A DNA stretch of 64,000 nucleotides, taken from contig JALOPB010000003.1 of NCBI GenBank assembly GCA_025454115.1, positions 7,036 to 71,035 of the forward strand, given 5' to 3'. The stretch comes from Desulfobacterales bacterium. Lineage in GTDB: Bacteria > Desulfobacterota > Desulfobacteria > Desulfobacterales > SpSt-501. The position numbers and the translations under genes were made by a program. The notes below the pieces were generated by a model, which was not told the DNA's origin, made no database searches, and saw nothing but the letters and a program-made list of their open reading frames with translations. Positions 21,243-49,155 of the stretch are shown here, piece after piece (position 1 is the stretch's first letter; every line of letters starts with the position of its first letter).

Positions 21243-21426
21243 ACGCCGACATTCCCCTTGCGGTCGATGACTTCTTACCGCCGCGCCGATAGTCGACAAG
21301 GATGCCGCTATCTCTTGATACCGTCGCTGAGCCTATATCATATCTAAAAATCCCTTACAAGATGATAGCCAATTGCGGCCTTGGTCGGAAGCGGCCGAAT
21401 TCTCGGACAGGCTGGAACCAACGGTG

Positions 21427-23685
21427 ATGACGGTTATGGACGGTTACGGGCATCAGAAAAGCACCATGCTGCAGATCAATCAAGATGTCGGCTCGCTCTT
21501 TCAGGTCGCTCGATCGATTCCCGGGCTTGCGGACGTGAGCTTCGGCGATTGGGAGAAGACCTGCGCGGAGTTACCCGGGCAGCTGAACGCGCCCATCATC
21601 CGCGTCGGCGTGGTGGGACCCATCAAGTCCGGAAAAAGCACCTTCCTGAACGCCTTGCTTAAAGGCGATTTCCTGAAGCGCGGGGCCGGCGTGGTGACAT
21701 CGATTGTGACGCGGGTGCGGGCGGGGGAACGCCTGCGGGCCACATTGTACTACAAGTCCTGGGACGAAGTGAACGCCGACATGGAGCAGGCTCTGGTGTT
21801 GTTTCCTTCGCTTCACTGGCGCTCTGCCGAAGATCGGTTCGATATCCGCCGGGAGCCGGAGCGTATCGAGCTTCAGCAGGCGCTGAACGCGTTAAACGCC
21901 GACCTCCGAATTTCCGAAGACACTCGCAACCACAATATGGTGCTGCTATCCTGCTATCTGAAAGGGTATGACGCGGTTCGTCCGTTCATGATGGACCAGC
22001 AGGCCGTCCGGCATTATGAGGCCGAGCGGTTTAAGGAGCACTGGAAATTCACGGGGAACGAATCATTGGCAGTATATCTTCGCGACATCCAGCTGGACAT
22101 CGATTCCGGCGTCGTCGGCGGCAACATTGAAATCGCGGACTGCCAGGGCAGCGACTCTTCCAACCCCTTGCATCTGGCCATGATCCAAGACTACCTGCGG
22201 TCGGCTCATTTGCTGATTTACGTCATCAGCAGTCGCACCGGTCTCCGTCGTGCCGACATCAAGTTTCTCACCATGATCAAGAAAATGGGCATTCTTGACA
22301 ACACGCTTTTTGTGTTGAACTGCGATTTCAGCGAGCACCCGTCCCTCGACGACCTCAAGACGCTGACGGGCCGGGTATCCGATGAGCTGGCGCTCATCCG
22401 GCCACGGCCGGAGGTGTATGCCTTTTCCGCCCTGTTCAACCTGTTCGATTCCCAGAATGCCAACCTGGCGGAGCGCGACCGGCGACGGATGGATCATTGG
22501 AGGGCCGAAGCGGATCTGGTGGGCTTTTCCGACCACGAAACCGGCCGATTTGCCGGCCGCTTCAATCTGATTTTAGAGCGTCAGCGATATGCACTTCTGC
22601 TGCAAAATCCCATTGAGCGGCTGGGCAGCATCGCCGCCGGCATGTCGCATTGGATCGGGGTCAATCGCGATATCCTCTCGCGGGATGCCGCCAGCGCCCG
22701 TAACGTCTCTGAGCGCATTCGGCGGCATCGGGAACGATTCGAGCAGATCCTGGCGGCGTTGAAAAGCTCGTTGTCCGGGAAGATACCCGCGATCAAGCAG
22801 GAAGTGGCCCAAGACGTCAACCGCTTTTTGACGCCGCGCTCCGGCGAGATCGTCGCCGCCATCGACACCTTTATTTCCGGCTATCGGCTGGTTCCGGACA
22901 GTTACATGGAGCGCTTACGCCATTCCGGATTTTTTCAGACATTGTACCATGTGTTCCAGGTGTTTAAACAGGCACTGGATTCGTTCATCACCGAGCACAT
23001 CAATCCGGCAATCATCCGGTTCATCGCCACGGAAGAAGCTAAAATTCGGGATGCGCTGGAATCCGTTGCGATGCCCTATCAAAGCCTGATCGACGATGCT
23101 TACACGGAGTTTTGCAGCCTCATGTCGCAGTTGGGTATTTCGATCGACTGCACCGGCCCGGAAAGCATCGGGATACCCAGCGTTGAAAATCTGCTGCGGC
23201 AAGCCGGGCTCAACGTCCCCCCCCTCGCCACGACCATTGGCTATACCGCACGCATCCGAACCGAGGCCGTCCTGCGGCGAGGGCTCTACCGAACGGTGAG
23301 TGGATTAAAAAAAATCATGAAAAAACCGGTGACGCGCGATGAGGACGATGCGAAGGCCATACAGGAGGCCATGCGGGCGATTAAGCGCGAAACCCGGCAG
23401 TCGCTGGAGTTCCACCTGAAGGATTATCAAGAGAACCTCAAGTTCCGATACCTGTTTCGTCTCGCTGATACGGTCGCACAGCGTTTCGAACAGGCGGTCG
23501 GGCAACAGCTTGAGGCTTATTCGGCCGATTTCGGCATTCTGGCGGAGCGTCTTGGCACTCAGCAAGGCGACAAGGAAAGCGCCGCCGCGCTGCTGGACGA
23601 TATGCACCTGCGCTGTCGGAAAACCAGCGAAGCCCTCGCACGGCTGAAAGGGGACCTTTCCGAGGCGGTGCAACCCAGCGCCTGA
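21427..23685 (+). CDS. Bacterial dynamin-like GTPase
   Basis: G1 motif VGVVGPIKSGKSTFLNALL, G3-like IADCQGSDS, G4-like LNCDFSE, and a long helical C-terminal part. The start is uncertain (TTG 21373, GTG 21424, ATG 21427 or ATG 21436). Confidence 0.7.
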   Translation: MTVMDGYGHQKSTMLQINQDVGSLFQVARSIPGLADVSFGDWEKTCAELPGQLNAPIIRVGVVGPIKSGKSTFLNALLKGDFLKRGAGVVTSIVTRVRAGERLRATLYYKSWDEVNADMEQALVLFPSLHWRSAEDRFDIRREPERIELQQALNALNADLRISEDTRNHNMVLLSCYLKGYDAVRPFMMDQQAVRHYEAERFKEHWKFTGNESLAVYLRDIQLDIDSGVVGGNIEIADCQGSDSSNPLHLAMIQDYLRSAHLLIYVISSRTGLRRADIKFLTMIKKMGILDNTLFVLNCDFSEHPSLDDLKTLTGRVSDELALIRPRPEVYAFSALFNLFDSQNANLAERDRRRMDHWRAEADLVGFSDHETGRFAGRFNLILERQRYALLLQNPIERLGSIAAGMSHWIGVNRDILSRDAASARNVSERIRRHRERFEQILAALKSSLSGKIPAIKQEVAQDVNRFLTPRSGEIVAAIDTFISGYRLVPDSYMERLRHSGFFQTLYHVFQVFKQALDSFITEHINPAIIRFIATEEAKIRDALESVAMPYQSLIDDAYTEFCSLMSQLGISIDCTGPESIGIPSVENLLRQAGLNVPPLATTIGYTARIRTEAVLRRGLYRTVSGLKKIMKKPVTRDEDDAKAIQEAMRAIKRETRQSLEFHLKDYQENLKFRYLFRLADTVAQRFEQAVGQQLEAYSADFGILAERLGTQQGDKESAAALLDDMHLRCRKTSEALARLKGDLSEAVQPSA

Positions 23686-23698
23686 GCCGGGTCGGGCG

Positions 23699-25423
23699 TC
23701 AACGACCGATCTGAGACAGCCGCGTTCGCGCGAATTCGATGCCGGGATCCAGGCTCAGGGCTATCTCATAGCAGTCCCTGGCCTTGGCGATTTGCCCGAG
23801 GGCCTGATAGTTGACTCCGAGGTTGGCATGGTCGATGGCTGAACTCGGATCCAGCGCGATCACCCGCTGAAAAGCCGCTACCGCCTCCTCATGGTCGCCG
23901 CGTTTGAAGTGACAGAATCCGATCAGGTTATGAATATCCGTGCGCTCCGAATCGATTTCTAAGCCCTTGCGTAGAAATCCAAGCGCTTCCTCAAATTGGC
24001 CGACCTCTTTGTGAGCCAGCCCCAGGTAACTAAATATGCTAGGCGCTTCCGCCGGATCCGGGTTCAGCTCCAAAGCACGCTGGAAGTGCAAAATCGCCGG
24101 TTCCGGCTCGGCCGCCCTCAGCCGAACCAAGCCCAGGTAAAACGGAATAAAGTATTTCCCGGGAAGGTCCGAGTCGATGCGCTCCAGCGCGGCAATCGCC
24201 TGGCCGGTGGGCAGTGTTTCAGCGGCATGCTTGGCCGCAAACATTAGCACGCTGGTGCTTCGCGATCGTTCTCGGAAATGGGCTCCCGGAACGATGGTGT
24301 AATATGCCGGGACTTGAATTCCGGGGTGTTGGGTTTCAACCAGCAACACCTCAAGTCCGCGGCGGGCCAATGCCTGAATGCAGCTTTCGATTTCGATACG
24401 GATGTTGGAGTGGGACAGGTCGGGTAGGCTGGACAGCGCCACCTTGGCGCCGGCATTGGTCACATAGCCCGCATCCGCCAAATTTCGGAACTTGGGAAGT
24501 CCGCTGGCGACATAGTTGGCGCCGGAATTGAAATCACCGGCCAGTTGGGCCACTTCGGTAAGCGCCCGACTCAAGGCTTTTTCTGGGCTCGGTGTCGTGC
24601 CGGCGGTCCAGACGATTTCACTGGTTTGCGGATGGGTTTGAGGATCATACGCCAGCACGCCTACCGTGGGGATTCCGGTGTCGAGGGTGAAATCCGAAAT
24701 GAACAGGCGGATTCCGCACTGGCGGTATTTGCCCAGCATGTCGACGACCAGAGGGTCTTGTGCGGATTCGGGGCGGATCGCCGGAACGCAACGTCGTTCG
24801 TGGCTGATGATGGATGACACATGGCGCTCCACGATTTCGCAGATGCCTTGCAAAATAGCCTCTTCCCTGCAATTGCCTGCAGAGGATCCATTGAATTCGT
24901 TGATGGCGAAAAACCAGTCGAACGGGATCATGACGGTCTGGTTTCGGGTCAGGTTGAATGCCCGGGTCCATTTGAAAGAGAGAGATTCAAAGATACGGCG
25001 GGCGGCGGGCAGATCTTCTGAGGCATCGTGAACCGAACCGGCGATGCTCTCAAAGGCGATGGCAGGTTCGTGGAGAGCGCTGAGGGGGCCTTCCGTGAAA
25101 TGCGCCGGAGTTTGCATGAAGCTGAACAGACTGAACCGTTCGGCCAGTTCCATTACGGCGCTCGCCTCAGCCTGCGCTGGCGTGGCGCCTTTTCCCATTT
25201 GTTTGCGGGTACCGATGACGCGTTGTGCATCCCGGCCACAACGGCTCAAGTAGACCGGGATTCCGAGGCGACCGTTATCAATTCGAACCGTCTCTTTAAG
25301 AAGGTCTAATGGTCCCGCTTTAAGCGTTTCACGAAACCGTTTGAGGGTTTCTTCGGGAGGGATCACCTTGTCCTGGTCCCGGGTATCGGTTTTAAACGCA
25401 TCCGCTAGCTTCAGCTCTTGCAT
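23699..25423 (-). CDS. ycaO: YcaO-domain protein with C-terminal TPR repeats
   Basis: YcaO signatures MGKGATPAQAEASAVMELAERFS and SSAGNCREEAILQGICEIVERH. The C-terminal region of about 170 aa has 4-5 TPR-like repeats (FQRALELNPD..., FLRKGLEIDSE..., FQRVIALDPS..., YEIALSLDPG...). The ATG at 25423 has aaaagga 7 nt upstream. Confidence 0.85.
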   Translation of the reverse strand: MQELKLADAFKTDTRDQDKVIPPEETLKRFRETLKAGPLDLLKETVRIDNGRLGIPVYLSRCGRDAQRVIGTRKQMGKGATPAQAEASAVMELAERFSLFSFMQTPAHFTEGPLSALHEPAIAFESIAGSVHDASEDLPAARRIFESLSFKWTRAFNLTRNQTVMIPFDWFFAINEFNGSSAGNCREEAILQGICEIVERHVSSIISHERRCVPAIRPESAQDPLVVDMLGKYRQCGIRLFISDFTLDTGIPTVGVLAYDPQTHPQTSEIVWTAGTTPSPEKALSRALTEVAQLAGDFNSGANYVASGLPKFRNLADAGYVTNAGAKVALSSLPDLSHSNIRIEIESCIQALARRGLEVLLVETQHPGIQVPAYYTIVPGAHFRERSRSTSVLMFAAKHAAETLPTGQAIAALERIDSDLPGKYFIPFYLGLVRLRAAEPEPAILHFQRALELNPDPAEAPSIFSYLGLAHKEVGQFEEALGFLRKGLEIDSERTDIHNLIGFCHFKRGDHEEAVAAFQRVIALDPSSAIDHANLGVNYQALGQIAKARDCYEIALSLDPGIEFARTRLSQIGR

Positions 25424-25513
25424 CACAGATTCCTTTTCCGGCCGCGCCTGCCTTGGTCGACGCTGGTGGCGTCCGGGTTCCGCCAACTCCGGCGGGAAAA
25501 TTGTTATTTTTCA

Positions 25514-38510: not shown

Positions 38511-38611
38511 GGTCGTTCTGATATCCTATGCAGTATGATAAGGGTCGGCGCAGCGCAGCGATCCGGCGTTACACGCTTTTCTAATTAGCGGCCGGTCCAC
38601 CGGGCGCTCGG

Positions 38612-39126: not shown

Positions 39127-40644
39127 TCATTCCTGGGTGAGTTCAATTTCAACCCGTCGGTTCTGCTGTCGGCCTTCAGGGCTGTCGTTTGATGCAATGG
39201 GGTTTTTGGGACCTAGCCCCACAGCCATCAGGTGGGAGGCGTTGACCCCCTTGCCGGCCAGATAGCTCTTGATCGAATTGGCTCTGAACTGGGAGACACT
39301 CACGTTGTAGGTAACCGAGCCCACGGAATCCGTGTAACCTCGTATGCTGGCCTTCAGTTCCCGGCGAGATTTGAGAAACAGCGCAATCTGGTCAAGAGCT
39401 GCCAAGGCTTCTGAGGTAAGCTCGTTGGAATTGTAAGGAAAGAAGATCATCACCCGGCCGCGCGAAAAAGGGTTCGCGGCGAGCGCGTCGGAGGAAACCG
39501 GCTCCGGACGGCTGCCTGAGGCAGCGACGGCAACGGGTGGAATCGGCTTCGTTGAGGATGGATCTCTAGAGGCTTCCTCGGTTTCAGCGGCGGCTGGAGG
39601 TTCAGTTGCCATCGATGGGTTGGAAAGCCCCTTGTACGTTTGGGGGGCGATATCCTCCAACGACCATCGCTGGGACTCCTGGGAACGGTATTGGTAGATC
39701 ATGAAGCCGGCGAAACCCAAGAGCAGCAGGACGACCAGCACCACCGGCATTTTCCAACCAGACGCTCGGGTCGAAGCCGTTGATTCGGCGGATGCAGCCG
39801 AGTAATCGCTGAAGGCACTACTGCCTGGTAGAGTTGAGGCACTCGGCAGACGCAGTTCTTTTTCGCATTCCTGGATCAGTTGATGATCAATGGATTTTGC
39901 ACCCGCGGCATACCCCGTCAACAACGCATGATCGCAGATGATGTTGATCAATCGTGGATAGCCGCGTGAAAACGAATGGATCTGCCGAATCGCCGCTGAG
40001 GTGAAAATGTCCTTCTGCGCTCCGGCTACTTTCAAGCGATGGCGAATGTAAAGCGGGGTTTCGAGGTCCTTCAGCGGCTCGATGTGGTAGCTAACCGTAA
40101 TTCGCTGACGGACCGCCTTGCTGCGTTCGTCCAACAGAATTCGGTTGAACTCGGTCTGGCCGACGAAGAAAATATTGATCAGTTTGCGGTTCTCAAGCTC
40201 GATATTCGACAGCAGTCGGATCTGTTCGAGCATCTCAACCGTGAGTCGCTGCGCTTCATCGATGACCAACAGCACTTTTTGTCGAGTGGAATACGCCTTG
40301 AGCAAAAATTGCTTGAATTCGATCAGGAATTCGCCTTTCGAAGCGAAGCGACGATTCATGCGGAACTCGACGGCCAGAAAATTGAAAAAGTCGACCGTCT
40401 CCATGCCCGGATCCGGGATGGTCGCCACGATGGCGGCCACGTCAATGGTCTTGATCAGCAGTTTGATCAGGGCCGTTTTGCCGGTTCCGACATCGCCGGT
40501 AAGCAGGAGGAAGCCCTTGTCCTCCAAGATGCCGTACTTGAGGGTCGCCAGCGCCTCGGCGTGCTTTTCTCCCAGCCACAGGAATTTCGGATCCGTGGTG
40601 ATTTGGAAGGGCTTTTGCGTTAGCTGGTAAAATGAGAGATACAT
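39127..40644 (-). CDS. ExeA/GspA-like AAA+ ATPase with a TM helix and a periplasmic OmpA-like peptidoglycan-binding domain
   Basis: The N-terminus reads MYLSFYQLTQKPFQITTDPKFLW...LLTGDVGTGKTAL (Walker A), with LLVIDEAQ as Walker B. A TM helix is WKMPVVLVVLLLLGFAGFMIY, followed by a Pro/Ala/Ser linker. The C-terminal OmpA_C-type motifs are RGYTDSVGS...NVSVSQFRANSI...NRRVEIEL. Confidence 0.8.
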   Translation of the reverse strand: MYLSFYQLTQKPFQITTDPKFLWLGEKHAEALATLKYGILEDKGFLLLTGDVGTGKTALIKLLIKTIDVAAIVATIPDPGMETVDFFNFLAVEFRMNRRFASKGEFLIEFKQFLLKAYSTRQKVLLVIDEAQRLTVEMLEQIRLLSNIELENRKLINIFFVGQTEFNRILLDERSKAVRQRITVSYHIEPLKDLETPLYIRHRLKVAGAQKDIFTSAAIRQIHSFSRGYPRLINIICDHALLTGYAAGAKSIDHQLIQECEKELRLPSASTLPGSSAFSDYSAASAESTASTRASGWKMPVVLVVLLLLGFAGFMIYQYRSQESQRWSLEDIAPQTYKGLSNPSMATEPPAAAETEEASRDPSSTKPIPPVAVAASGSRPEPVSSDALAANPFSRGRVMIFFPYNSNELTSEALAALDQIALFLKSRRELKASIRGYTDSVGSVTYNVSVSQFRANSIKSYLAGKGVNASHLMAVGLGPKNPIASNDSPEGRQQNRRVEIELTQE

Positions 40645-40726
40645 GCCATGCCCGCGCCTAAATGGGGTCAGTCGAGCCGCTCTGTTTCCGGCAGCGGCGG
40701 CGAATTGATCAAAAAACGGGTTGCGT

Positions 40727-41284
40727 TCAGCGTGCCCGGATAAATCCTCGTCCGTAGTAAAAATAGATGGCGATCCAGAGAATGAAAAACAGAAGTAAAT
40801 AAGCAGTTCGTTGCCGAATCAATTTTTCCCGGCGCTTGTCGACAAGGTTCGCTGAATTTTTAAGCTCGCGCTTGACGATATCGAGCTCGTTCAGCAAACC
40901 GTCCACATCGGCCGTTTCGGAATACGCAACCAGCCGCTTGGACTTATTCTCGAAATCGCGGACGCTGTAGGCATCGAACATGATCTTCTGCTTTTCCGTC
41001 AGATACGATACTTCATGGATCTCCTTGGCCAGCTCCGCACAGTAAAACTTCCGATAAGGATTTTTTTTCGGGGCCTCGCCCAGCTGTCGGGTCCGCCGTT
41101 CGATTCCACCATCCAATTCGGTTGAGATTTCACCCAGGATTCGGTCCAAGTCTTTAATGGCGCTGTGATTTTTGAGCAGATCTTCACCGGAGAACGCCGA
41201 AACGAAAAATATAAGCAATCCAGACGTCAGGCAGCTAGCAAGGATCTTGAAAATAATAACGAGATCCCGGTTCAATCTGGGCAT
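40727..41284 (-). CDS. Hypothetical membrane protein (N- and C-terminal TM helices flanking a coiled-coil region)
   Basis: 185 aa. TM helices LVIIFKILASCLTSGLLIFFVSAF and AYLLLFFILWIAIYFYY. AT-richer by eye than its neighbours. Preceded by a near-consensus promoter and an aaagga SD. No family recognised. Confidence 0.5.
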   Translation of the reverse strand: MPRLNRDLVIIFKILASCLTSGLLIFFVSAFSGEDLLKNHSAIKDLDRILGEISTELDGGIERRTRQLGEAPKKNPYRKFYCAELAKEIHEVSYLTEKQKIMFDAYSVRDFENKSKRLVAYSETADVDGLLNELDIVKRELKNSANLVDKRREKLIRQRTAYLLLFFILWIAIYFYYGRGFIRAR

Positions 41285-41367
41285 TTCCCGGTTATCCTTT
41301 CACCCGACGAAAGCAACTTCAGGAAGACAAATATAACTCTCTTATATTACAATACAAAATATTATAA

Positions 41368-41396
41368 ATTTTATCGAAAAGCTTACCGCGTGTCAA
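41368..41396 (-). promoter_or_regulatory. Near-consensus sigma70 promoter (TTGACA-N17-TAAAAT) for the 40727-41284 gene and probably the downstream ExeA-like gene
   Basis: The plus strand reads tgtcaa at 41391-41396 and atttta at 41368-41373. Read on the minus strand this is TTGACA-17 nt-TAAAAT, about 85 nt upstream of the ATG at 41284. Confidence 0.5.
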
Positions 41397-41442
41397 TACG
41401 ACGGCCCGGTATTGCCCGGAAAGCTGGAGCACAGCGGGGATT

Positions 41443-42270
41443 TCATCGAGCCATATCGGATTCTTGGGCGGCTTTCAAGTTTTGTCGAATCTGATCAACA
41501 TCGTTGGACTCTCCCATATGTTGTTCCACCCAATCCGGCGGTTTGTCGAAGTCCCGCGCCAATGCGTTCAGGGCTTCGTGGAAACTGTCGTAGCTGGTAT
41601 CCGGTCCGGTCATATATTTCTGAGCGCGTCGGGGGTTGTAAAATTCAATGACGCCTCCCGGCAGGGCAGCCGAAGTCATTTTGGCGGAGGCCGAATCCGA
41701 GAGGCGCGATGCCAGCGTTTCCCGCACCTCGCTCAGTTCGTTGCTGTCGCCCAGGTTTTCCTCGATCCAGGACGTTGACCGGTTGAACTCTTCCGCCAAG
41801 GCTGAAATGGCATCCCGGAATGTATCATGTTGACGGGTGGTACTGCTCCAATATTTTTTAGGCCGCCGCGGGTCGTAAAATGCGATACCTTTAGGCTTCG
41901 GGGGTGTTGACGCCGATGGGGTTTCCAATTTCGGCGCCGGAGCGGGTCGTCTGCTGGGCGCCTGCGAAGAGTCGGCTTCCTGGGCATTCTTCGAATCCAG
42001 CTCCGGCTCGACGGTTAAACCTTTTTCGATACGTGCCACATCGGACTTGCGATAGATCAACAGCCCCCCGTCATATTCACAGTGGACTTCATCGCCTTTT
42101 TCCCAGGCGCTACCCTCACATAAGGTTCGCATTCCATCTTGAAAGTAAATCGTGTCCGCGGCGATCGCAGCCAAACCTCCGAACCAAACTGAAAATCCGA
42201 CCAGGGCAGCCACCCGCAACGGCAGCAGGCGTTGCCGGTTTATCTCATTATTCCTCGATGCATCCGTCAT
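41443..42270 (-). CDS. Secreted or anchored protein with a small N-terminal beta-type module and a tandemly duplicated ~58-aa domain, function unknown
   Basis: Signal/anchor LLPLRVAALVGFSVWFGGLAAIAA, then a Pro-rich linker. Two homologous blocks follow: FYDPRRPKKYW...FRDAISALAEEFNRSTSWIEENLGDSNELSEVRETL and FYNPRRAQKYM...FHEALNALARDFDKPPDWVEQHMGESNDVDQIRQNL. Confidence 0.6.
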   Translation of the reverse strand: MTDASRNNEINRQRLLPLRVAALVGFSVWFGGLAAIAADTIYFQDGMRTLCEGSAWEKGDEVHCEYDGGLLIYRKSDVARIEKGLTVEPELDSKNAQEADSSQAPSRRPAPAPKLETPSASTPPKPKGIAFYDPRRPKKYWSSTTRQHDTFRDAISALAEEFNRSTSWIEENLGDSNELSEVRETLASRLSDSASAKMTSAALPGGVIEFYNPRRAQKYMTGPDTSYDSFHEALNALARDFDKPPDWVEQHMGESNDVDQIRQNLKAAQESDMAR

Positions 42271-42396
42271 GTTGGGGATTGCCTTAGAAGACTATAGCTG
42301 AGCGACTGTACGTGTAACCATAACAGTTTTTGAAATTGAACGAAAGAGCGGGTGCGTCGCGACTCGATTGAGGGCGGGTTTGAAAGCAAAGAAGGA

Positions 42397-42786
42397 TCAG
42401 GAGGGAGCGCTTTCGGTTTGGCCTTTGAGCGTATCTCTGACTGTTCTTAGGAGCTCCTGCCGGTCGATGGGCTTCGAGAGGGTATAGGTTGCCCCCAGCT
42501 TCTTTGCCCCGCGCAGATAGCCATCCGGACGATTCAAGCCCCCTCCAGACATGGCAATGATTTTTATGAAAGAAAATTCCTTTTTCAGCTCAAGAATCAT
42601 CCCGATCCCATCCTTGTTGGGCATGATGAGATCGGTAATGATCAGGTCCGCCGGCTTTTCACGGAAACATCGGATCCCCTCCACACCATCCGAGGCTTCG
42701 TCCACGGCATAGCCTGCACGCTCTAAAACGAGCCGGATCATGGACCGAATGGGGGCTTCATCATCAATTATCAGGATGCGTTCCAT
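42397..42786 (-). CDS. Stand-alone CheY-like response-regulator receiver
   Basis: Motifs ILIIDDE, the phospho-acceptor region DLIITDLIMP, IIAMSGGG and LSKP. 129 aa with no output domain. Confidence 0.9.
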   Translation of the reverse strand: MERILIIDDEAPIRSMIRLVLERAGYAVDEASDGVEGIRCFREKPADLIITDLIMPNKDGIGMILELKKEFSFIKIIAMSGGGLNRPDGYLRGAKKLGATYTLSKPIDRQELLRTVRDTLKGQTESAPS

Positions 42787-43051
42787 ATATGTTTTGTTCG
42801 GACGGAATTCTACAAACGGATGACAAACAGGTTTTATAATATATTAGACCATAATTCCGGCCAGGTTTCAACCCCGCGTGGCGGCGGACCTGCATGCGCA
42901 TGAATAGAATCGTCGATCCGTGCGCCGCCGCCGATCATCCCGATACCAGCTGATTTCCTTTAGATTTTTATCAAATTGCCGAATATAAGAGCATGTCCCG
43001 GCAGGTTCGATCGATGGGTTTCGGATCCAGGCCGTAACGACGATCTAAACG

Positions 43052-43960
43052 ATGAACGGCACCCATTCAAATTTCTACGATTCCTCGCATGCCATCGGCA
43101 TGACCATCGGTAACGCGACTATCGTGAAGGAGCTGGCACGTGGAAACATGGGGATCGTCTTTATTGCCTATCAATCTAATTTGAAGCGTCGCATCGCGGT
43201 GAAAGTGCTGCCGAAATGGTTGTGTACGGATGAATCCATCCGCCGCTTTGAGCAGGAAGCCGAGGCCGTTGCCGGACTATCGCACCCGAACATCGTACCG
43301 ATTTATGACATTGGAGAGACTGAGCAGTTTCGATATTTCACCATGCAGTTGATCGATGGAATTCCCCTTTCGGCCGTTCTCGAACGAATTTCAAGACATA
43401 TCCTTCCATCCCGACGCATCCTTCCGTTGAAAACAACGCTATCGGTTCTTCGGCAACTGATCGAGGCGCTGGGGTATGCGCACAGTCGAGGCGTGATCCA
43501 TCTCGACATCAAACCCGAGAATGTTTTGATGTGCACCGACGCGCACATCCCGATTATCACCGATTTCGGGATTTCCAGATGGGTCGGTCGTTCCAGCGAA
43601 GCCGACTCGGTGCTGCGAGGAAGCCCTCTATATATGGCCCCGGAGCAAGTCGCTCTTGAACAAACCGATGCCCGCACGGATATCTATGCGCTCGGCGTGC
43701 TTCTTTTCCGGCTGCTGGTCGATAAGCTGCCGTTGGTTGCGTGTGCTTCCTATACCGATCTGCTCAGAAGGAAATTCAACAAGCAAACGATTTTTTCCCG
43801 GCGTCCGTCCCAGGTCAATCCACGGCTCAATTCGGAAATCGATGCCATCGTGGCCACTGCAACGGCGTCCGACCTGCGGCAGCGATATCCGTCCGGCAGC
43901 CAGTTTTGGGATGCCTTGCGCAGTTACAGACGCAAATTCCTGGACGGTGATGAAACATGA
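43052..43960 (+). CDS. Soluble Hanks-type Ser/Thr protein kinase (non-RD)
   Basis: Motifs RGNMGIV (G-loop), IAVKVL (catalytic Lys), EAEAVAGLSHPNIV, HLDIKPENVL (HLD instead of HRD), TDFGIS and YMAPEQ. There is no TM or sensor domain. Confidence 0.9.
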   Translation: MNGTHSNFYDSSHAIGMTIGNATIVKELARGNMGIVFIAYQSNLKRRIAVKVLPKWLCTDESIRRFEQEAEAVAGLSHPNIVPIYDIGETEQFRYFTMQLIDGIPLSAVLERISRHILPSRRILPLKTTLSVLRQLIEALGYAHSRGVIHLDIKPENVLMCTDAHIPIITDFGISRWVGRSSEADSVLRGSPLYMAPEQVALEQTDARTDIYALGVLLFRLLVDKLPLVACASYTDLLRRKFNKQTIFSRRPSQVNPRLNSEIDAIVATATASDLRQRYPSGSQFWDALRSYRRKFLDGDET

Positions 43961-46140
43961 TACCATTGCGTTCCAGTAAGAAGGGCCATCACAAAGCCGG
44001 CAAGTCCTTCGTGCTCATGTTCAATCGTGTTTCCATGTACGGCCCGGGGCATCCCTATTCGGTTCAGGCAGTAGAGGAATTTTACCGGTCCATCCGTGAT
44101 TTGCTGCAGATCGCTTCACCCGTGGTGTTGATATACCGTCGGGGGCAGTTTTTCCTGGAGGACGAGCCGCTGGATCCAAGCCTGAATTATTTCAAGATGG
44201 CGTCCCACTTTAAAAGGGCGCAGGTAACATCAATTGCTGTGTTTCAGGATGTTCAAAAGCGTGAAGTGGAAGATTTTATAGGGATATTTTTAGACACGCG
44301 TAACTACCCGACAGTCGATCGGATAAAAGCCGCCGCCGAATCGGTGTCGATCGCCCACATCCGCATCAATCATATTTCCTATCGGAAGGTGAGCGAAGAT
44401 GATCGCATCGTATCAAAATCAACCGTCGTCAATACAGAGACCCTCAGCAATAAATTGAACGCCTCTCAGCAGTACCAGGAAGCCCTGGGGATGATCGCCG
44501 GAAAATTGCTCATGGAAGAGGTCGACCAGGAGTTGTGTTTGAAACGGCTGATCACCGACCCGTTCGCCTACTCGATAAACCTGGTTAGCCAAGAGGTGAC
44601 CGAGCGGAGCCGTGGGACGAAAGATGTTCAACGTCCGGTTTACTCCATTAGCGGGCATTTGGCGGCGTTGGGCCATGAAATCAAGAACGTGTTATCCGAC
44701 GGCTCGGGGATCAGCCTTTCGGACCTAGCCGCTGCCTTGGTAAAGATGAAGCATGGGCTCCAGGATGCGATAAAAGCACAGCGGTCCTTGGGCGCCTGGC
44801 TGGATCCGTCAGAGACCGTCTATCAGCAAGCCGAAGACCTATCGGATACCGTCATACTGGAGTTGATAAAAAAAGAATACCAGCACGGCCGGACACCCGT
44901 AGCGCGGCTGGCCTTTCTGCTACAGCGAATCGTTGCGACGGAACCGGAGTTGCGTCGGCTTCTGCCCAAGATCAGGGATAGCCTCGTTGCCGAAGGCATG
45001 CCGCTGTCAGTTTTCTGGGAACTCATCCAGCACCTGGGCCAGGATCGTCAGAATGCACCGTTGGCCGAATGGCTCCATCAAGGCGCTGAGGCCATCGGAA
45101 TGAACGCAGGCGATTTGATGAGCCGCTGGAAAGCGGATCCCTCCCGCCTGACTCAGTTTTTATATTTGGCAACCGAAATCGAGCAGCAGGCGGGCAGTGC
45201 TCAACCGCTGTGCGACATCCTGGTTGAATATATTGAACGGTTCAAACCGAAAATGATTAACGTTGGAGCCGACCCGGAGGCAACCAGCGGTAGACAGCTT
45301 CGAAATCTGGCCGCTTTATTCAATGCCCAGCTGGTCGAAGGCTTGCGCGGCCAGGGGACGGACTCTCAGCTCATCAATCAGGTGGAAAAACGATTAGCGG
45401 AAAGGCTGGACGCCAGCGTCCAGGCGATACGCACTGAACTGGCGGCATACCACGCATCGATCGGCACTCAGGATCTCCGTCAAGCGACGCTGCTGCAACG
45501 CCTGGAGGAAGGGCTGAGCGACGATCAGGAGCTAAAGCGGATTCTCAAAGAAATTCGATCCAGCAGCGAAGGGTCGCGGTGGGACGAAAACGACTTCCAA
45601 CAGATTTTCGAACGGATACAAACTGCTAGGAATAATCGTCGGAAGAAAATTATCGCCCTCCATGATCTTATTTTCAATAAAGAGATTACCTTCGCGCTGT
45701 TGGAAAAGGAGATTTCACGTTCGGCCAGGTATGGGACCAGTTTAAGCGGAATCACCTTTTCCGTTCTTCACATGGTCGCGCCCGGCACGGCTCCAGACAA
45801 CGGCACCGAGCCGACCGAAGCGCTCCTTGCATTTTTGCAGGCGATCCAGCAACGGTTGCGCACGGCAGATTGGATGGGGACGTTGAGTCATGGGCTTTTT
45901 ATTGCGGTATTGCCGATGACGACCGTCAAAGAGGCGCACCTCACCGCCCGGCGGTTGATGAAACATATCAATTCGAAACCGGGTGCCCCCCCGGGTCCGG
46001 CCGGTCCGGCCAAGCTCGCCGGATCGGTGGTTCATTATGACCAACAAACCATTGCCAACGCCGATGCGTTCATTCGTTGCGCCAGCCGTGAACACGCGGA
46101 AATGATCCAGCGGCTGCGCAATCTGCAGGAATTCATGTAG
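43957..46140 (+). CDS. 727-aa protein of unknown family ending in a degenerate (inactive) GGDEF-like domain that retains an RxxD I-site
   Basis: The ATG overlaps the kinase stop (ATGA). The C-terminal region FALLEKEISRSARYGTSLSGITFSV...LQAIQQRLRTADWMGTLSHGLFIAVLPMTTVKEAHLTARRL follows the GGDEF-domain pattern. SHGLF replaces GGDEF and the metal-binding DxD region is missing. RTAD sits five residues upstream of SHGLF. Confidence 0.6.
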   Translation: MIPLRSSKKGHHKAGKSFVLMFNRVSMYGPGHPYSVQAVEEFYRSIRDLLQIASPVVLIYRRGQFFLEDEPLDPSLNYFKMASHFKRAQVTSIAVFQDVQKREVEDFIGIFLDTRNYPTVDRIKAAAESVSIAHIRINHISYRKVSEDDRIVSKSTVVNTETLSNKLNASQQYQEALGMIAGKLLMEEVDQELCLKRLITDPFAYSINLVSQEVTERSRGTKDVQRPVYSISGHLAALGHEIKNVLSDGSGISLSDLAAALVKMKHGLQDAIKAQRSLGAWLDPSETVYQQAEDLSDTVILELIKKEYQHGRTPVARLAFLLQRIVATEPELRRLLPKIRDSLVAEGMPLSVFWELIQHLGQDRQNAPLAEWLHQGAEAIGMNAGDLMSRWKADPSRLTQFLYLATEIEQQAGSAQPLCDILVEYIERFKPKMINVGADPEATSGRQLRNLAALFNAQLVEGLRGQGTDSQLINQVEKRLAERLDASVQAIRTELAAYHASIGTQDLRQATLLQRLEEGLSDDQELKRILKEIRSSSEGSRWDENDFQQIFERIQTARNNRRKKIIALHDLIFNKEITFALLEKEISRSARYGTSLSGITFSVLHMVAPGTAPDNGTEPTEALLAFLQAIQQRLRTADWMGTLSHGLFIAVLPMTTVKEAHLTARRLMKHINSKPGAPPGPAGPAKLAGSVVHYDQQTIANADAFIRCASREHAEMIQRLRNLQEFM

Positions 46141-46238
46141 CACCGGTATGAAAGGAGCGGCGAGGCTAGCCGTGGAAGCGTCGCAAGACGGCCGAGGGGA
46201 ACGCAACCGAAACCGTTGAAACCGGCGAGGAGTTAAAA

Positions 46239-46979
46239 ATGGCGATTTTATCATTGCGGTATCGTGGCAACGAATTGCGCAATTTTCCGATCGGGGTCGG
46301 GGATTCATTTGTCATCGGCCGGCATCCAGTCAATGACATTGTAATCGACAACCTGGCGGTGTCGTTCCAGCACGCAAAAATTGAATCCATTGGCGATGAA
46401 TTCCTGCTGATCGATTTAAAGAGTGAAAACGGCTCGTTTGTCAACGATCAGCGCATCAAAGCGCATTGGTTGATCGATGGAGACGAGATCACCATCGGGA
46501 AGCACTGCCTGATGTTTGCCAATCCGAAGAGCAACCACGTCTGTACTTCCGGGCCTGAGTCGATCATTAAGACCATGCAGATCGACACGGAAAGGCTTAG
46601 AGCGCTGCTCAGGCAAGACCGACCGCAGCCTCCATGCGATGCGCCTGCCCCCAAGACGTCAGCGCTCGATGATCGAGTCGGCCTCAAAGCACTATTGGTG
46701 GTTCTGTCCGGGGAGAAAAAAGAACTGATTTTAGGCGATACACCGGTCCGGATCGGCAAAGCGGCGAATGCCGATATCGTTGTACGCGGGTTCGGGGTTG
46801 GGTCGACAGCGGCGGTGGTGAATCGCCTGCCTGACGGTTGGTATCTCAGCTATGTCGGAGGACTGGCCAAGATCCGCGTGAATCGGGTGCCGGTCAAGAG
46901 CTCCATCAAGCTCCAGCGGTTAGATGTCATCCGCCTGCGAGGCACCATGATCCAGTTTCTGCTTTCGGCCGGCGGCTGA
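46239..46979 (+). CDS. Tandem FHA-domain protein (first FHA canonical, second degenerate)
   Basis: FHA1 is FVIGRHPVNDIVIDNLAVSFQHAKI...LIDLKSENGSFVND, with the conserved GR, SxxH and NG residues. The second block, VRIGKAANADIVVRG...RVNRVPV, is FHA-like but lacks the Ser/His pair. A gaggag SD lies 7 nt upstream. Confidence 0.8.
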   Translation: MAILSLRYRGNELRNFPIGVGDSFVIGRHPVNDIVIDNLAVSFQHAKIESIGDEFLLIDLKSENGSFVNDQRIKAHWLIDGDEITIGKHCLMFANPKSNHVCTSGPESIIKTMQIDTERLRALLRQDRPQPPCDAPAPKTSALDDRVGLKALLVVLSGEKKELILGDTPVRIGKAANADIVVRGFGVGSTAAVVNRLPDGWYLSYVGGLAKIRVNRVPVKSSIKLQRLDVIRLRGTMIQFLLSAGG

Positions 46980-46995
46980 ATTATCATGAGCCAGT

Positions 46996-49155
46996 TTAGA
47001 TCGTGGTGGCCAGCGAAAGTTCATCATTGGATAGCAGGTTCGGGCTGGGCGTCTCTTCCGCGAAGCTATACCAATCCTCACGGCACATGGTCTTCAGCAC
47101 GCAATTGAACATGAGCAGAAGCAACTCGTGCGCATTCAGCCGGGGAATCGTTCCGCTTTCCAACGTGCCGATGATTTGAGATTTGCGGTCCATGAGGGCT
47201 TTCAACATGGCGAGGTGGTGCAGAAAGCGCTCGGTCGACCTGAGCGCGTCTGATGCGGAGGCGGGATCAAGCTGCATTTTGTCCTGAAGGGCCTTTAAAA
47301 TCTGTCCGATTCGCCGCTGGGAAGCCTTCAACAAGTGTTCGGCGGAGCGATCGAATAAGAGATCACCGGTGACGACCTTGAAGACCATCACCAGGGCCGC
47401 ATGCCAATCCTGAAAATGCAGCACCCAGGCGGGGTCGGCGAAACAGGCTTGCAGGGCCGGGTTGGGAAACAGGTGCGAGGGGGTGGCGTAATAGGGGGTG
47501 CCACCCAGCAAGGGCTGTTTAAGCGCGGCGCCGTCGGAGGGGTCGAGGTAGACCGCCGTTTCCACATCGATGAAACCTAACGAATAATCCGAAGCCGACC
47601 GCAAAAACGCCGGGTAGTTCTGCGGATCGCCGGCGACCAGAAGATTGTCAGGCTTCAGGTCCCGCATGGCCACCTTCTTTTCACTGAGCCAGGCGAGCAG
47701 GTCCAATAGATTGGCAATGATGCCGGATATGATTTGGCGGTTCTGCTCCAGGCAGAGGCGTGCCGTGAAGGCGCGGACGGCAGCGAGATAAGCATCCACG
47801 GCTTCGCGGTATTTATCGAACCAGCGCGTGAAGATCGCCGCGATTTCCTCCGCCATCCGACCGGAGACCGATGAATCGGATTCGCCGAGGTCCTGTTTCT
47901 CCAGATAATTCAAAAACCATTCCTGGATGCGGTAGGGGGTCACGGTGGCGGACTTCCCGCTGTTTTTTATCAGTTGGCGCACTTCGGCTTCGCATTGGTG
48001 ATAGAGGTCGCGAATTTCAAAGCCGACCGATTCGTTTTGCTCGCCGTAACGTTCCTTGAATTTCGCGGGATAGCGGATTAGATCAGCGGTAGAATTGATT
48101 TCCGACCGAATCGGATCCGCCAGGTCATGAAGGTTGTCGATAATGTGACTCAGGAAGTAGTAGCGTGAAAGGTCCATGAAGAAGACAAAGGTGCCGCTGA
48201 TTTTCAGATTGTCCTGATGGGCCGGGGTTTTTCGAAGCCAGGTGATGTATTTCTCTTCCAGCAGGTCGAGCGTGGAGCCCGGGGGAGGCTGCAGGTGATG
48301 GATCTGGCTTAAAATGACGGACACCCTGGGAACGATGCACTCCTTCGGGCTGAGCCGTTCGACAATGTGGCGCTCTTTTTTGATGCTGGCGACGTAGTCC
48401 TCGAAATCCGTAATCGGCTTGGGGGGTATTTTGACGACCAGATGGCGATCAAAGATCACATAGTAACATTTGCTTTTACTTCCGCTATCCTCGCCCAGAG
48501 GTCCGAGTGTCATGCGCCGCCTGGTCCACTCTCCGCCGTTCTTCACCCGCAGCTCATAGACATGGCTGGATCCGGCAAGCACGGACGGCAGCTGGACAAA
48601 GTCCGCCGGCACCTCCGGCCCGAAACCCAGCTGCTGACGATACAACCCTAAAAAGAAGCGCACGACGTCCGCACGGTTGGGCATTTCCGGGCTGGGTTCT
48701 TTGATCGGAGCAGCTGGGCAAACCGCGTGCTTTATTCGGGGGCGTGTTCGGACCCAGCGCAACGTCAGCACCAACGCGATCGGGAAAGCCACGGCACCGA
48801 TCAGCGACCACCGGATGGGAGCGGACAGGCTCGTCAGCGCAAGGCCATCCTGGATCAGCGGATGAATGGCACTCACCGCACGGACCGCTGTGCTCGAAAT
48901 TCGACCGCCCGTCGTTTGCAGCCAGATGGAGAGGCTCTGTTTCTCAATGGAATGGATTTCCGTCAGGCTGACAAAGCGGATTTCTTTGTCGTTTTCATAG
49001 AACAGATCGGCTCCAGACTCCCACATCCGGTCGACGGGAATCATCTGGCCGTTTTTCAGCTGGATGATATTACGATCCAGCTGATCCCTGACCGGAACAG
49101 CCACCATCATGGCGATGATCGCCAGAGCGCCTAAACAAATTTTCCACTTCCGCAT
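46996..49155 (-). CDS. Bitopic membrane protein with a small periplasmic module and a divergent protein-kinase-like cytoplasmic domain
   Basis: Signal anchor ICLGALAIIAMMVAV and a second TM helix IRWSLIGAVAFPIALVLTL. Kinase-like motifs are HLVVKIPPK, KKERHIVERL, AMRDLKPDNLLVAGD (catalytic loop), GFIDVETAV (in the DFG position) and GGTPYYATPS (in the APE position). Confidence 0.6.
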   Translation of the reverse strand: MRKWKICLGALAIIAMMVAVPVRDQLDRNIIQLKNGQMIPVDRMWESGADLFYENDKEIRFVSLTEIHSIEKQSLSIWLQTTGGRISSTAVRAVSAIHPLIQDGLALTSLSAPIRWSLIGAVAFPIALVLTLRWVRTRPRIKHAVCPAAPIKEPSPEMPNRADVVRFFLGLYRQQLGFGPEVPADFVQLPSVLAGSSHVYELRVKNGGEWTRRRMTLGPLGEDSGSKSKCYYVIFDRHLVVKIPPKPITDFEDYVASIKKERHIVERLSPKECIVPRVSVILSQIHHLQPPPGSTLDLLEEKYITWLRKTPAHQDNLKISGTFVFFMDLSRYYFLSHIIDNLHDLADPIRSEINSTADLIRYPAKFKERYGEQNESVGFEIRDLYHQCEAEVRQLIKNSGKSATVTPYRIQEWFLNYLEKQDLGESDSSVSGRMAEEIAAIFTRWFDKYREAVDAYLAAVRAFTARLCLEQNRQIISGIIANLLDLLAWLSEKKVAMRDLKPDNLLVAGDPQNYPAFLRSASDYSLGFIDVETAVYLDPSDGAALKQPLLGGTPYYATPSHLFPNPALQACFADPAWVLHFQDWHAALVMVFKVVTGDLLFDRSAEHLLKASQRRIGQILKALQDKMQLDPASASDALRSTERFLHHLAMLKALMDRKSQIIGTLESGTIPRLNAHELLLLMFNCVLKTMCREDWYSFAEETPSPNLLSNDELSLATTI

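Follow-up and report, generated by a model that had tools for sequence, protein, structure and literature searches.

A conserved kinase and degenerate-GGDEF gene module lies between two independently conserved modules in a Desulfobacterales chromosome

We analyzed a block of genes at positions 39127-49155 of a 64,000-nucleotide stretch of DNA from a Desulfobacterales bacterium (assembly GCA_025454115.1, contig JALOPB010000003.1, positions 7,036 to 71,035 of the forward strand). We refer to the whole stretch as the window and count positions from its first letter. A first-pass annotation had read the block as one nine-gene signaling system. Judged from gene order and sequence comparisons, three modules, each conserved independently of the others, lie side by side here in one lineage, in core chromosomal DNA; the block is neither an island nor a single system. 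Module A comprises a receiver (g4), a duplicated protein (g3), a two-transmembrane protein (g2), and an AAA+ ATPase (g1). Module B comprises a Ser/Thr kinase (g5) and a 727-residue protein (g6), plus an FHA protein (g7), and it is the only unit that behaves as a self-contained signaling system. Module C is a membrane kinase-like protein (g8). The best explanation, which we hold to be reasonably probable, is that the three modules are juxtaposed and that module B is a kinase/g6/FHA signaling unit that would sense cyclic di-GMP (c-di-GMP).

The interval 39127-49155, as first proposed, matches the gene boundaries exactly: its left end is the stop of the first gene, and its right end is the start of the last gene. 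It contains eight genes (g1 to g8) rather than nine, and a separate gene call on a 99.9%-identical contig (GCA_025490995.1, the sister assembly) likewise gave eight. We assigned the proteins with Pfam and NCBIfam profiles and found most of the earlier domain calls to be correct. The features of module B are as follows.

43052..43960, plus strand: g5, soluble Hanks Ser/Thr kinase of 302 residues, catalytic domain only, with an HLD (non-RD) loop
43957..46140, plus strand: g6, 727 residues, unannotated family, with an N-terminal alpha/beta domain, a long helical region, and a C-terminal degenerate GGDEF domain
43957..44376, plus strand: N-terminal domain of g6 (residues 1-140), modeled alone by AlphaFold2 with a predicted local distance difference test score (pLDDT) of 88 and a predicted template-modeling score (pTM) of 0.81
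44386..44403, plus strand: g6 residues 144-149, KVSEDD (family consensus K-V-T-x-D-D), in a predicted disordered linker; a candidate phospho-acceptor site
45679..46137, plus strand: C-terminal GGDEF-fold domain of g6 (residues 575-727), catalytically degenerate, with SHGLF in place of GG[D/E]EF
45859..45870, plus strand: R635-T-A-D638 of g6, the invariant RxxD inhibitory-site (I-site) motif; with R666 (45952-45954) it makes up, by sequence, the primary c-di-GMP I-site triad
46239..46979, plus strand: g7, module B accessory, double-FHA protein of 246 residues; the first FHA domain is canonical and the second looks degenerate

We used g6, the most distinctive protein of the block, as the anchor for a comparison of gene neighborhoods. 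We scanned one genome for each GTDB species with a profile, and g6 relatives turned up in 155 genomes. The scan yielded 80 loci, each with at most 10 kb of sequence on either side, and every window protein was searched against them with tblastn; including loci not anchored on g6, we compared 91 related loci (labeled L001 and so on). We found that a kinase gene lies directly 5' of g6 in 74 of the 80 loci, the other 6 having too little sequence upstream of g6. In most loci the gap between the two genes, measured from the end of the kinase to the start of g6, is -4 to +27 bp, and in the window the two genes share an ATGA overlap at 43957-43960, as expected from the translational coupling proposed earlier. 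The divergence of the kinase is correlated with that of g6 (Spearman 0.68). The kinase-g6 module is present in at least 155 species-level genomes, nearly all labeled Desulfobacterales, Desulfatiglandales, or related Desulfobacterota. We concluded that a conserved kinase/GGDEF-like(/FHA) module without annotation is real.

The rest of the block did not follow the pair. We found g1, g2, g3, g8, and the housekeeping flanks in only 5 to 7 of the 80 loci, always in the same close relatives. All eight genes stand together in five loci (L001, L002, L003, L017, and L069), whose g6 proteins are 63-67% identical, and these loci also share the order of the flanking genes (thioredoxin-reductase-like, aminotransferase, NUDIX, Mut7-C, RimK, and HD). 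Because the housekeeping flanks are equally collinear, the eight-gene adjacency points to recent common ancestry and not to selection. Outside this five-relative clade, modules A, B, and C were separate in every genome examined; g8 stays with the Mut7-C/RimK/HD genes and AMMECR1, g4-g1 stay with the NUDIX and aminotransferase genes, and g5-g6 travels alone. De novo clustering of the neighboring open reading frames in the g6 loci revealed no further widely shared gene. The block is the junction of two syntenic core blocks with module B in between, confined to one narrow clade.

The reading that started from the first-pass annotation is a single envelope-anchored phospho-Ser/Thr circuit made up of all eight genes: the two kinases are the writers and the FHA protein is the reader, c-di-GMP serves as the gate, and the output is coupled to the peptidoglycan-anchored ATPase and the receiver. 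The first-pass annotation had added that the adjacency would be accidental if the genes were not kept together in other genomes. All members are indeed regulatory or envelope proteins, and their adjacency is kept in the window, in the near-identical sister assembly, and in five related species. A small, presumably periplasmic module is also common to g3 and g8, as had been claimed; it was not significant by pairwise BLASTP (E 0.38) and was recovered by hhalign profile-to-profile alignment (91%, E 1e-6, 46 columns). It consists of about 46 residues after the signal or anchor, is small and beta-rich, has no Pfam model, and is kept in g8 homologs far from any g3. Since it is retained where module A is not nearby, it is no proof of a link between modules A and C. 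The single circuit is very improbable: the modules are split in every genome examined outside the clade, the equally conserved flanks mean that adjacency within the clade adds no information, and by the proposal's own criterion the whole block is essentially an accidental neighborhood. Nothing in the comparative data spoke for coupling to the receiver, to the ATPase with its peptidoglycan anchor, or to the kinase-like membrane protein. The claim of one co-inherited system was thus dropped, as the eight genes are adjacent only where the flanks are collinear (5/80 loci) and are split elsewhere.

The kinase g5 agrees with its earlier description as a soluble non-RD Hanks kinase. It scored 137.6 bits against Pkinase (PF00069; cut-off, 31.7 bits) and has all key catalytic residues (K49, HLDIKPEN at 150, DFG at 171, and APE at 196), with no sensor domain or membrane segment. 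The HLD form of the catalytic loop is found in only 6 of 59 family members, the window protein included, and HRD is found in 51 of 59. The kinase also scores high against the PADLOC PD-T4-6 and mad6 kinase models (E 2.6e-63), as it would if module B were an anti-phage defense kinase system. These models match any Hanks kinase domain, however, and neither g6 nor g7 has a PADLOC match; the module sits in core syntenic chromosome among housekeeping neighbors, and kinase and g6 diverge in step. We consider a defense role extremely unlikely.

We found no Pfam or NCBIfam match for g6, and the GGDEF model PF00990 was absent even at E<=1. The family comprises 91 homolog clusters, and those with an organism name come from Desulfobacterales/Desulfobacterota metagenome-assembled genomes (MAGs). 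Some relatives are in MAGs assigned to Desulforapulum autotrophicum, Desulfosarcina, and Desulfatibacillum, taxa with cultured members. An AlphaFold2 model of g6 from a 51-sequence alignment had a mean pLDDT of 73.9; from the N terminus on, it shows an alpha/beta domain (pLDDT about 90), a linker predicted to be disordered, a long helical stretch, and a second alpha/beta domain at the C terminus. Because a Foldseek search with the whole model returned only GGDEF matches, we modeled the N-terminal domain alone, and it had no fold match in the PDB (Foldseek; best E 0.6). When 1.84 billion proteins were searched with a profile of this domain, 985 representatives were found. Within the 150 of these that scored best, the domain is almost always N-terminal and most proteins are about 650-750 residues long, a recurrence that indicates a fixed architecture. 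The distant members found with this profile likewise lack Pfam matches.

The first-pass annotation had described the C-terminal end of g6 as a catalytically dead GGDEF domain with an intact RxxD motif. This held, by way of homologs and structure. PF00990 was matched by 6 of 22 g6 homologs (best E 1.7e-6), the family profile matched the GGDEF domain of DosC in the PDB (E 8e-8), and in the Foldseek search of the PDB the C-terminal domain matched GGDEF structures (E 5e-7; template-modeling scores to isolated GGDEF domains, 0.73-0.76), with SiaD at the top. None of the 73 family sequences carries GG[D/E]EF residues at the positions aligned with the motif. The metal-binding DxD/FK-region residues, in the alignment to DosC, are absent in g6 as well; the region aligns to FSVLHM. 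The primary I-site consists of an RxxD motif five residues before the GGDEF motif and a downstream arginine (PleD R359/D362/R390) (PMC7288161). We found R635 and D638 of g6 in 73/73 sequences. R666 is invariant in 51 sequences, aligns with the arginine of the DosC AER-IR segment, which is the third I-site arginine (PleD R390), and lies 28 residues past D638, the same spacing as that of PleD R390 from D362. This RxxD+R triad is invariant across g6 proteins that are only 26-30% identical overall.

Between the N-terminal domain and the helical region, residues 141-167 of g6 have a pLDDT of <50. Within this stretch, position 146 is T in 62/73 sequences, S in 8/73 (window included), and A in 3/73, and position 148 is D in 70/73. 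We considered the conserved T146 as a docking site for an FHA domain, a proposal that is weakened by the Ser in the window protein.

For g7, FHA (PF00498) matched two stretches (86.4 bits), and the first domain scored best against OdhI (NCBIfam). By eye, the first domain has the GR, S-x-x-H, and NG residues usual for phosphothreonine binding and the second does not; the double-FHA description stands, with a second domain that looks degenerate. About 19 loci have a double-FHA ortholog directly 3' of g6, and all of these belong to the clade with g6 at least 42% identical to the window protein; an FHA-domain gene of some kind lies within about 3 kb in about 25 of the 80 loci.

In other lineages the kinase-g6 pair has further neighbors of the same kinds. 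Adjoining it we found FHA-EAL genes (L044 and L064), GAF-HD-GYP genes (L048 and L053), PP2C genes (L024, L033, and L044), and FHA-GAF-histidine kinase genes (L058 and L074); FHA-EAL and GAF-HD-GYP genes lie directly 3' in four loci. Because these neighbors are phosphothreonine readers, erasers, and c-di-GMP phosphodiesterases, the pair can be placed at a node between phosphothreonine and c-di-GMP signaling, and this is the main support for our reading. The earlier idea that kinases write and an FHA protein reads, possibly with c-di-GMP involved, therefore survives for the g5-g6-g7 core, with its near-universal pairing, its neighbors, and its RxxD motif, and fails for the block as a whole.

Taking the sequence data together, we infer that g6 may be a c-di-GMP-sensing regulatory partner of the bare kinase. 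In this model, g6 would be the sensory or regulatory subunit of the sensor-less kinase g5 and possibly also its substrate. Binding of c-di-GMP at the fossil I-site would change the conformation or oligomeric state of g6 and, with it, the output of the kinase. Phosphothreonine marks placed on g6 or on other targets would be read by g7. In other lineages the reader would be an FHA-EAL protein or an FHA-histidine kinase, PP2C would erase the marks, and an adjacent EAL or HD-GYP enzyme would feed back on c-di-GMP. A bolder version, which we regard as doubtful, is that the kinase-g6 pair, with the N-terminal domain of g6 included, is a new class of second-messenger-gated Hanks kinase holoenzyme and that, in sulfate-reducing Desulfobacterota, lineage-specific FHA-EAL, HD-GYP, and PP2C partners complete a loop in which Ser/Thr phosphorylation and c-di-GMP turnover feed back on each other.

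Several points weigh against this model. The mechanism leans on guilt by association, and the associations are uneven: an FHA gene adjoins the pair in only about a third of the loci, and a c-di-GMP phosphodiesterase gene does so in only four to six. The full-length g6 model has a pTM of 0.32, so the arrangement of the domains is not defined by it. The single conserved linker threonine is a serine in the window protein, while FHA domains prefer phosphothreonine. The residue equivalent to PleD R313, the fourth of the I-site, aligns with a lysine in the g6 family consensus, and the invariance of RxxD could reflect a structural or protein-contact role instead of nucleotide binding. Finally, the full adjacency that persists in the window and five species leaves room for a lineage-specific functional link.

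Some of these points would fit a g6 whose GGDEF-like domain does not bind c-di-GMP and serves purely as a scaffold or substrate or binds another nucleotide (GTP or ATP, for instance). Roles as GTP sensors or ATPases are known for some degenerate GGDEF domains (PMC7288161), and in g6 the fourth I-site arginine is not conserved and most loci have no c-di-GMP enzyme beside the pair. In contrast, the RxxD+R triad has stayed invariant at such low overall identity while the GTP and metal motifs were lost, and FHA-EAL and GAF-HD-GYP genes directly follow the pair in the four loci noted above. We consider this alternative unlikely and continue to favor g6 as a candidate c-di-GMP sensor.

A literature search for a kinase/degenerate-GGDEF/FHA operon gave no described match, and the claim that the block is a candidate undescribed system holds for g5-g6-g7, not for modules A and C as members. 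Its nearest counterparts each share part of its makeup. Like the I-site receptors of the PelD/PopA/SgmT type, g6 has a predicted GGDEF fold in which GG[D/E]EF has been lost and RxxD and the downstream arginine have been kept (PMC7288161, PMC7112168). In contrast to these receptors, its N-terminal 570 residues, with a domain lacking a PDB match and a long helical region, are unrelated, and it is obligately paired with a Hanks kinase gene, with no polysaccharide-synthase, ClpXP-adaptor, or histidine-kinase context. Bdellovibrio DgcB is an FHA-GGDEF protein that is activated by a phosphopeptide (PMC6733907; PDB 6hbz). As in module B, FHA phosphothreonine recognition is wired to a GGDEF protein, and 6hbz is among the structural matches of g6. 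DgcB, however, is an active cyclase with its FHA domain fused in cis, whereas module B has a dead GGDEF domain, a separate double-FHA protein, and a kinase in the operon.

In the Pseudomonas aeruginosa SiaABCD operon, Thr phosphorylation and dephosphorylation control a stalk-plus-GGDEF protein (PMC7647112, PMC8457831; PDB 7e6g). SiaD is the top structural match of g6, and PP2C phosphatases occur beside module B in some lineages, but SiaD is an active cyclase and the block has no SiaC-like gene. SiaB is not known to be a Hanks-type kinase, and SiaC is the phospho-switch protein. Module B shares the logic of writer, reader, and eraser with the Hanks kinase/FHA/PP2C modules (PknB-GarA/OdhI and the type VI secretion system PpkA-Fha1-PppA); it differs from them in that the invariant partner is a 727-residue GGDEF-like protein and not an FHA protein and in that the kinase has no sensor or membrane domain. 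We concluded that module B includes parts of known phospho-Ser/Thr and c-di-GMP signaling, plus a domain without a PDB fold match.

Module A lies to the left of module B, on the opposite strand, and has the following features.

39127..40644, minus strand: g1, 505 residues, ExeA/GspA-like AAA+ ATPase (AAA_22) with one transmembrane helix and a predicted periplasmic OmpA-like peptidoglycan-binding domain
40727..41284, minus strand: g2, 185 residues, two hydrophobic segments, no family match
41368..41396, minus strand: sigma-70-like promoter match 5' of g2, TTGACA-17-TAAAAT, 11/12, a consensus match only
41443..42270, minus strand: g3, 275 residues, probable exported protein with an N-terminal module of about 46 residues and two tandem repeats of about 70 residues
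42397..42786, minus strand: g4, stand-alone receiver of 129 residues with the acceptor Asp present
42787..43051, no strand: divergent intergenic region between g4 and g5, the junction of modules A and B, 265 bp, GC content 0.483

The earlier descriptions of the four proteins were largely borne out. In g1, a hydrophobic helix lies between Pfam matches to AAA_22 (85 bits) and OmpA (69.8 bits), as claimed for an ExeA/GspA-type ATPase with a transmembrane helix and an OmpA-like domain. Against TIGR03015, the XrtA/PEP-CTERM ATPase model, it scored 257.8 bits over residues 1-264, under the curated cut-off of 324.5 bits. Like ExeA/GspA and TIGR03015 proteins, g1 is an AAA_22 ATPase over the full length with a transmembrane helix and a predicted periplasmic peptidoglycan-binding domain; unlike them, it scores below the cut-off and has an OmpA-type domain instead of one of the PG_binding_1 type. 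Its conserved partner, in contrast to that of ExeA/GspA, is the 185-residue two-transmembrane protein g2. We found no type II secretion system genes within 10 kb on either side or among the annotated window open reading frames and no GspB, secretin, pilus, or exosortase genes in the annotated parts of the window. For g2, which has no Pfam, NCBIfam, or PADLOC match, both the two hydrophobic segments and the near-consensus promoter (TTGACA-17-TAAAAT, 11/12, reading from 41396 to 41368 on the minus strand) agree with the first description. Nothing usable came from Pfam, NCBIfam, or PADLOC for g3, whose proposed internal tandem duplication is clear (39% identity between repeats; BLASTP E 1e-20). 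The CheY-like receiver g4 does stand alone: it matched Response_reg (PF00072) at 81.1 bits, with DD8-9, D52, and K105 visible and no output domain.

Module A is an envelope module with g2 and g1 as its core, usually preceded by g3 and a stand-alone receiver. We found g1 orthologs (56-69% identical) in the order receiver/g3/g2/g1/NUDIX/aminotransferase/thioredoxin-reductase-like/IspD...rpoD/dnaG in L084, L086, and L090, with no kinase, g6, FHA, or g8 gene within 10 kb of module A. The tightest partner of g1 is g2, which tblastn found directly 5' of g1 and 68-78% identical in L084, L085, and L086; an unannotated gene for 182-184 residues fills its slot in L090 and L091. Orthologs of g3 are 41-47% identical in L084, L085, and L086. 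L084 and L086 have the receiver at the matching position with 76% identity, and a 129-residue Response_reg gene occupies that slot in L090. The g3-g2-g1 core in L085 and the g2-g1 core in L091 occur without modules B and C. Both g1 and a g6 homolog are found in the complete genome CP070746.1, about 0.87 Mb apart (near 6.33 and 5.46 Mb). An ExeA-like gene 3.4 kb from g7 in L009 had looked like a link between modules A and B; we rejected it as a 281-residue AAA-only paralog without g2, g3, or an OmpA domain.

In other genomes, rfbC/polysaccharide or nucleoside genes lie 5' of the receiver instead of module B. In L084 (1-7746) and L086 (1-7748) these are rfbC and polysaccharide/O-antigen-type genes, among them a glycosyltransferase, a sulfotransferase, a Wzm/Wzt-like ABC transporter, and Bac_transf, and from these neighbors module A may have an envelope-polysaccharide role. 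An insertion sequence (DDE transposase) lies between g3 and g2 in L090 (7342-9128), and L085 (4854-6179) has a gene for a reverse transcriptase (PF00078, RVT_1) some 3 kb upstream of module A. In CP070694.1 (L091, 8570-11563) only a 182-residue unannotated gene in the g2 position and g1 are present, preceded by a 98-residue PilZ-domain gene. This PilZ gene, which replaces g3 and the receiver, hints that module A may itself respond to c-di-GMP.

Module C, at the right end of the block, is a single gene.

46996..49155, minus strand: g8, membrane protein of 719 residues that combines a small, presumably periplasmic module with a cytoplasmic domain that is kinase-like but divergent

A divergent kinase fold had been claimed for g8. 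The protein matches Pkinase weakly at 22 bits, below the cut-off of 31.7 bits, and it has an RDLKPDN loop without the His, IDVE in place of DFG, and no G-loop. The family has at least 473 homologs, typically of about 814 residues, and many of the more distant members carry precomputed PF00069 matches. Homologs of g8 are followed by AMMECR1 and flanked by the Mut7-C/RimK/HD/HIT/LapA/MutS genes that make up the right flank of the window, with modules A and B absent; a distance of 78 kb separates modules A and C on contig JBBFLI010000005.1. Elsewhere, then, this kinase-like membrane protein has AMMECR1 and the Mut7-C/RimK/HD genes as its conserved partners. The AMMECR1 gene (about 200 residues) follows g8 in related species (L069, 13148-13750), and g8-AMMECR1 is a recurrent pair in distant genomes, once as Memo-AMMECR1. 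AMMECR1 is missing from the window and the sister assembly, and g7 and g8 converge with a 16-bp gap (46979-46996). Compared with the sister assembly, g8 has a 288-bp in-frame deletion (window 47341-47345; L087 13388-13673) and encodes 719 residues versus 815. This comparison led us to reject a C-terminal truncation, as the deletion is internal. The deleted segment is flanked by two mutually similar stretches, and the deletion could be strain variation or an assembly collapse.

These details bear on another possibility, in which ancestrally independent modules, with B placed between A and C, now share regulation, for example, through the g4/g5 region. The 265-bp divergent intergenic region does join g4 and g5, the arrangement is stable across six genomes (g6 identity, 63-100%), and the PilZ gene 5' of g2-g1 would fit a module A that responds to c-di-GMP. 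The argument is one from adjacency, however, in a clade that conserves unrelated flanking genes as well, and the window lineage has lost both the AMMECR1 partner and 96 codons of g8, losses that point to rearrangement scars and not to selection. We consider such lineage-specific coupling quite improbable and retain the reading of three independent modules, with module B as the signaling unit.

The GC content of the block is 0.541, versus 0.583 in the rest of the window, a dip of about 1-1.5 standard deviations (SD of 1-kb windows, 0.030). The AT richness noted earlier is thus present as a small dip, but it does not mark an island, because g1-g4 keep their synteny with housekeeping genes in genomes that are only distantly related; we rejected the low-GC, horizontal-island reading on these grounds. 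The remaining window is ordinary core chromosome (Lon, Tex, YceG, POR, dnaG-rpoD, and MutS). Two further genes linked to nucleotide second messengers lie at 14-2011 (minus strand) and 17880-20462 (plus strand); they encode a canonical GGDEF-EAL protein (157 and 260 bits) and an adenylate/guanylate cyclase with a GAF domain. A 36-bp indel relative to the sister assembly is located at 38588-38589, just 5' of the start of the NUDIX open reading frame (38612). A YcaO-TPR gene and a dynamin-like GTPase gene are convergent at 21373-25486 and again beside a g8 homolog in L083 (4762-8807), making them another conserved pair.

Dismissing the single-island reading, under which the block would count as a large new system of envelope signaling, avoids a chase after an accidental adjacency. 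The lead that remains is a tightly coupled two-gene module whose large protein is absent from Pfam and NCBIfam. The novelty of that protein, g6, lies in a confidently modeled domain without a PDB fold match and a dead GGDEF domain with an invariant inhibitory site. If our model is true, module B would be a direct, dedicated link from c-di-GMP to Hanks-type Ser/Thr phosphorylation, and the direction of control would be opposite to that in DgcB and SiaABCD, where phosphorylation controls cyclase activity. Because genera with cultured members are among the carriers of g6 relatives, this idea may be testable in culture.

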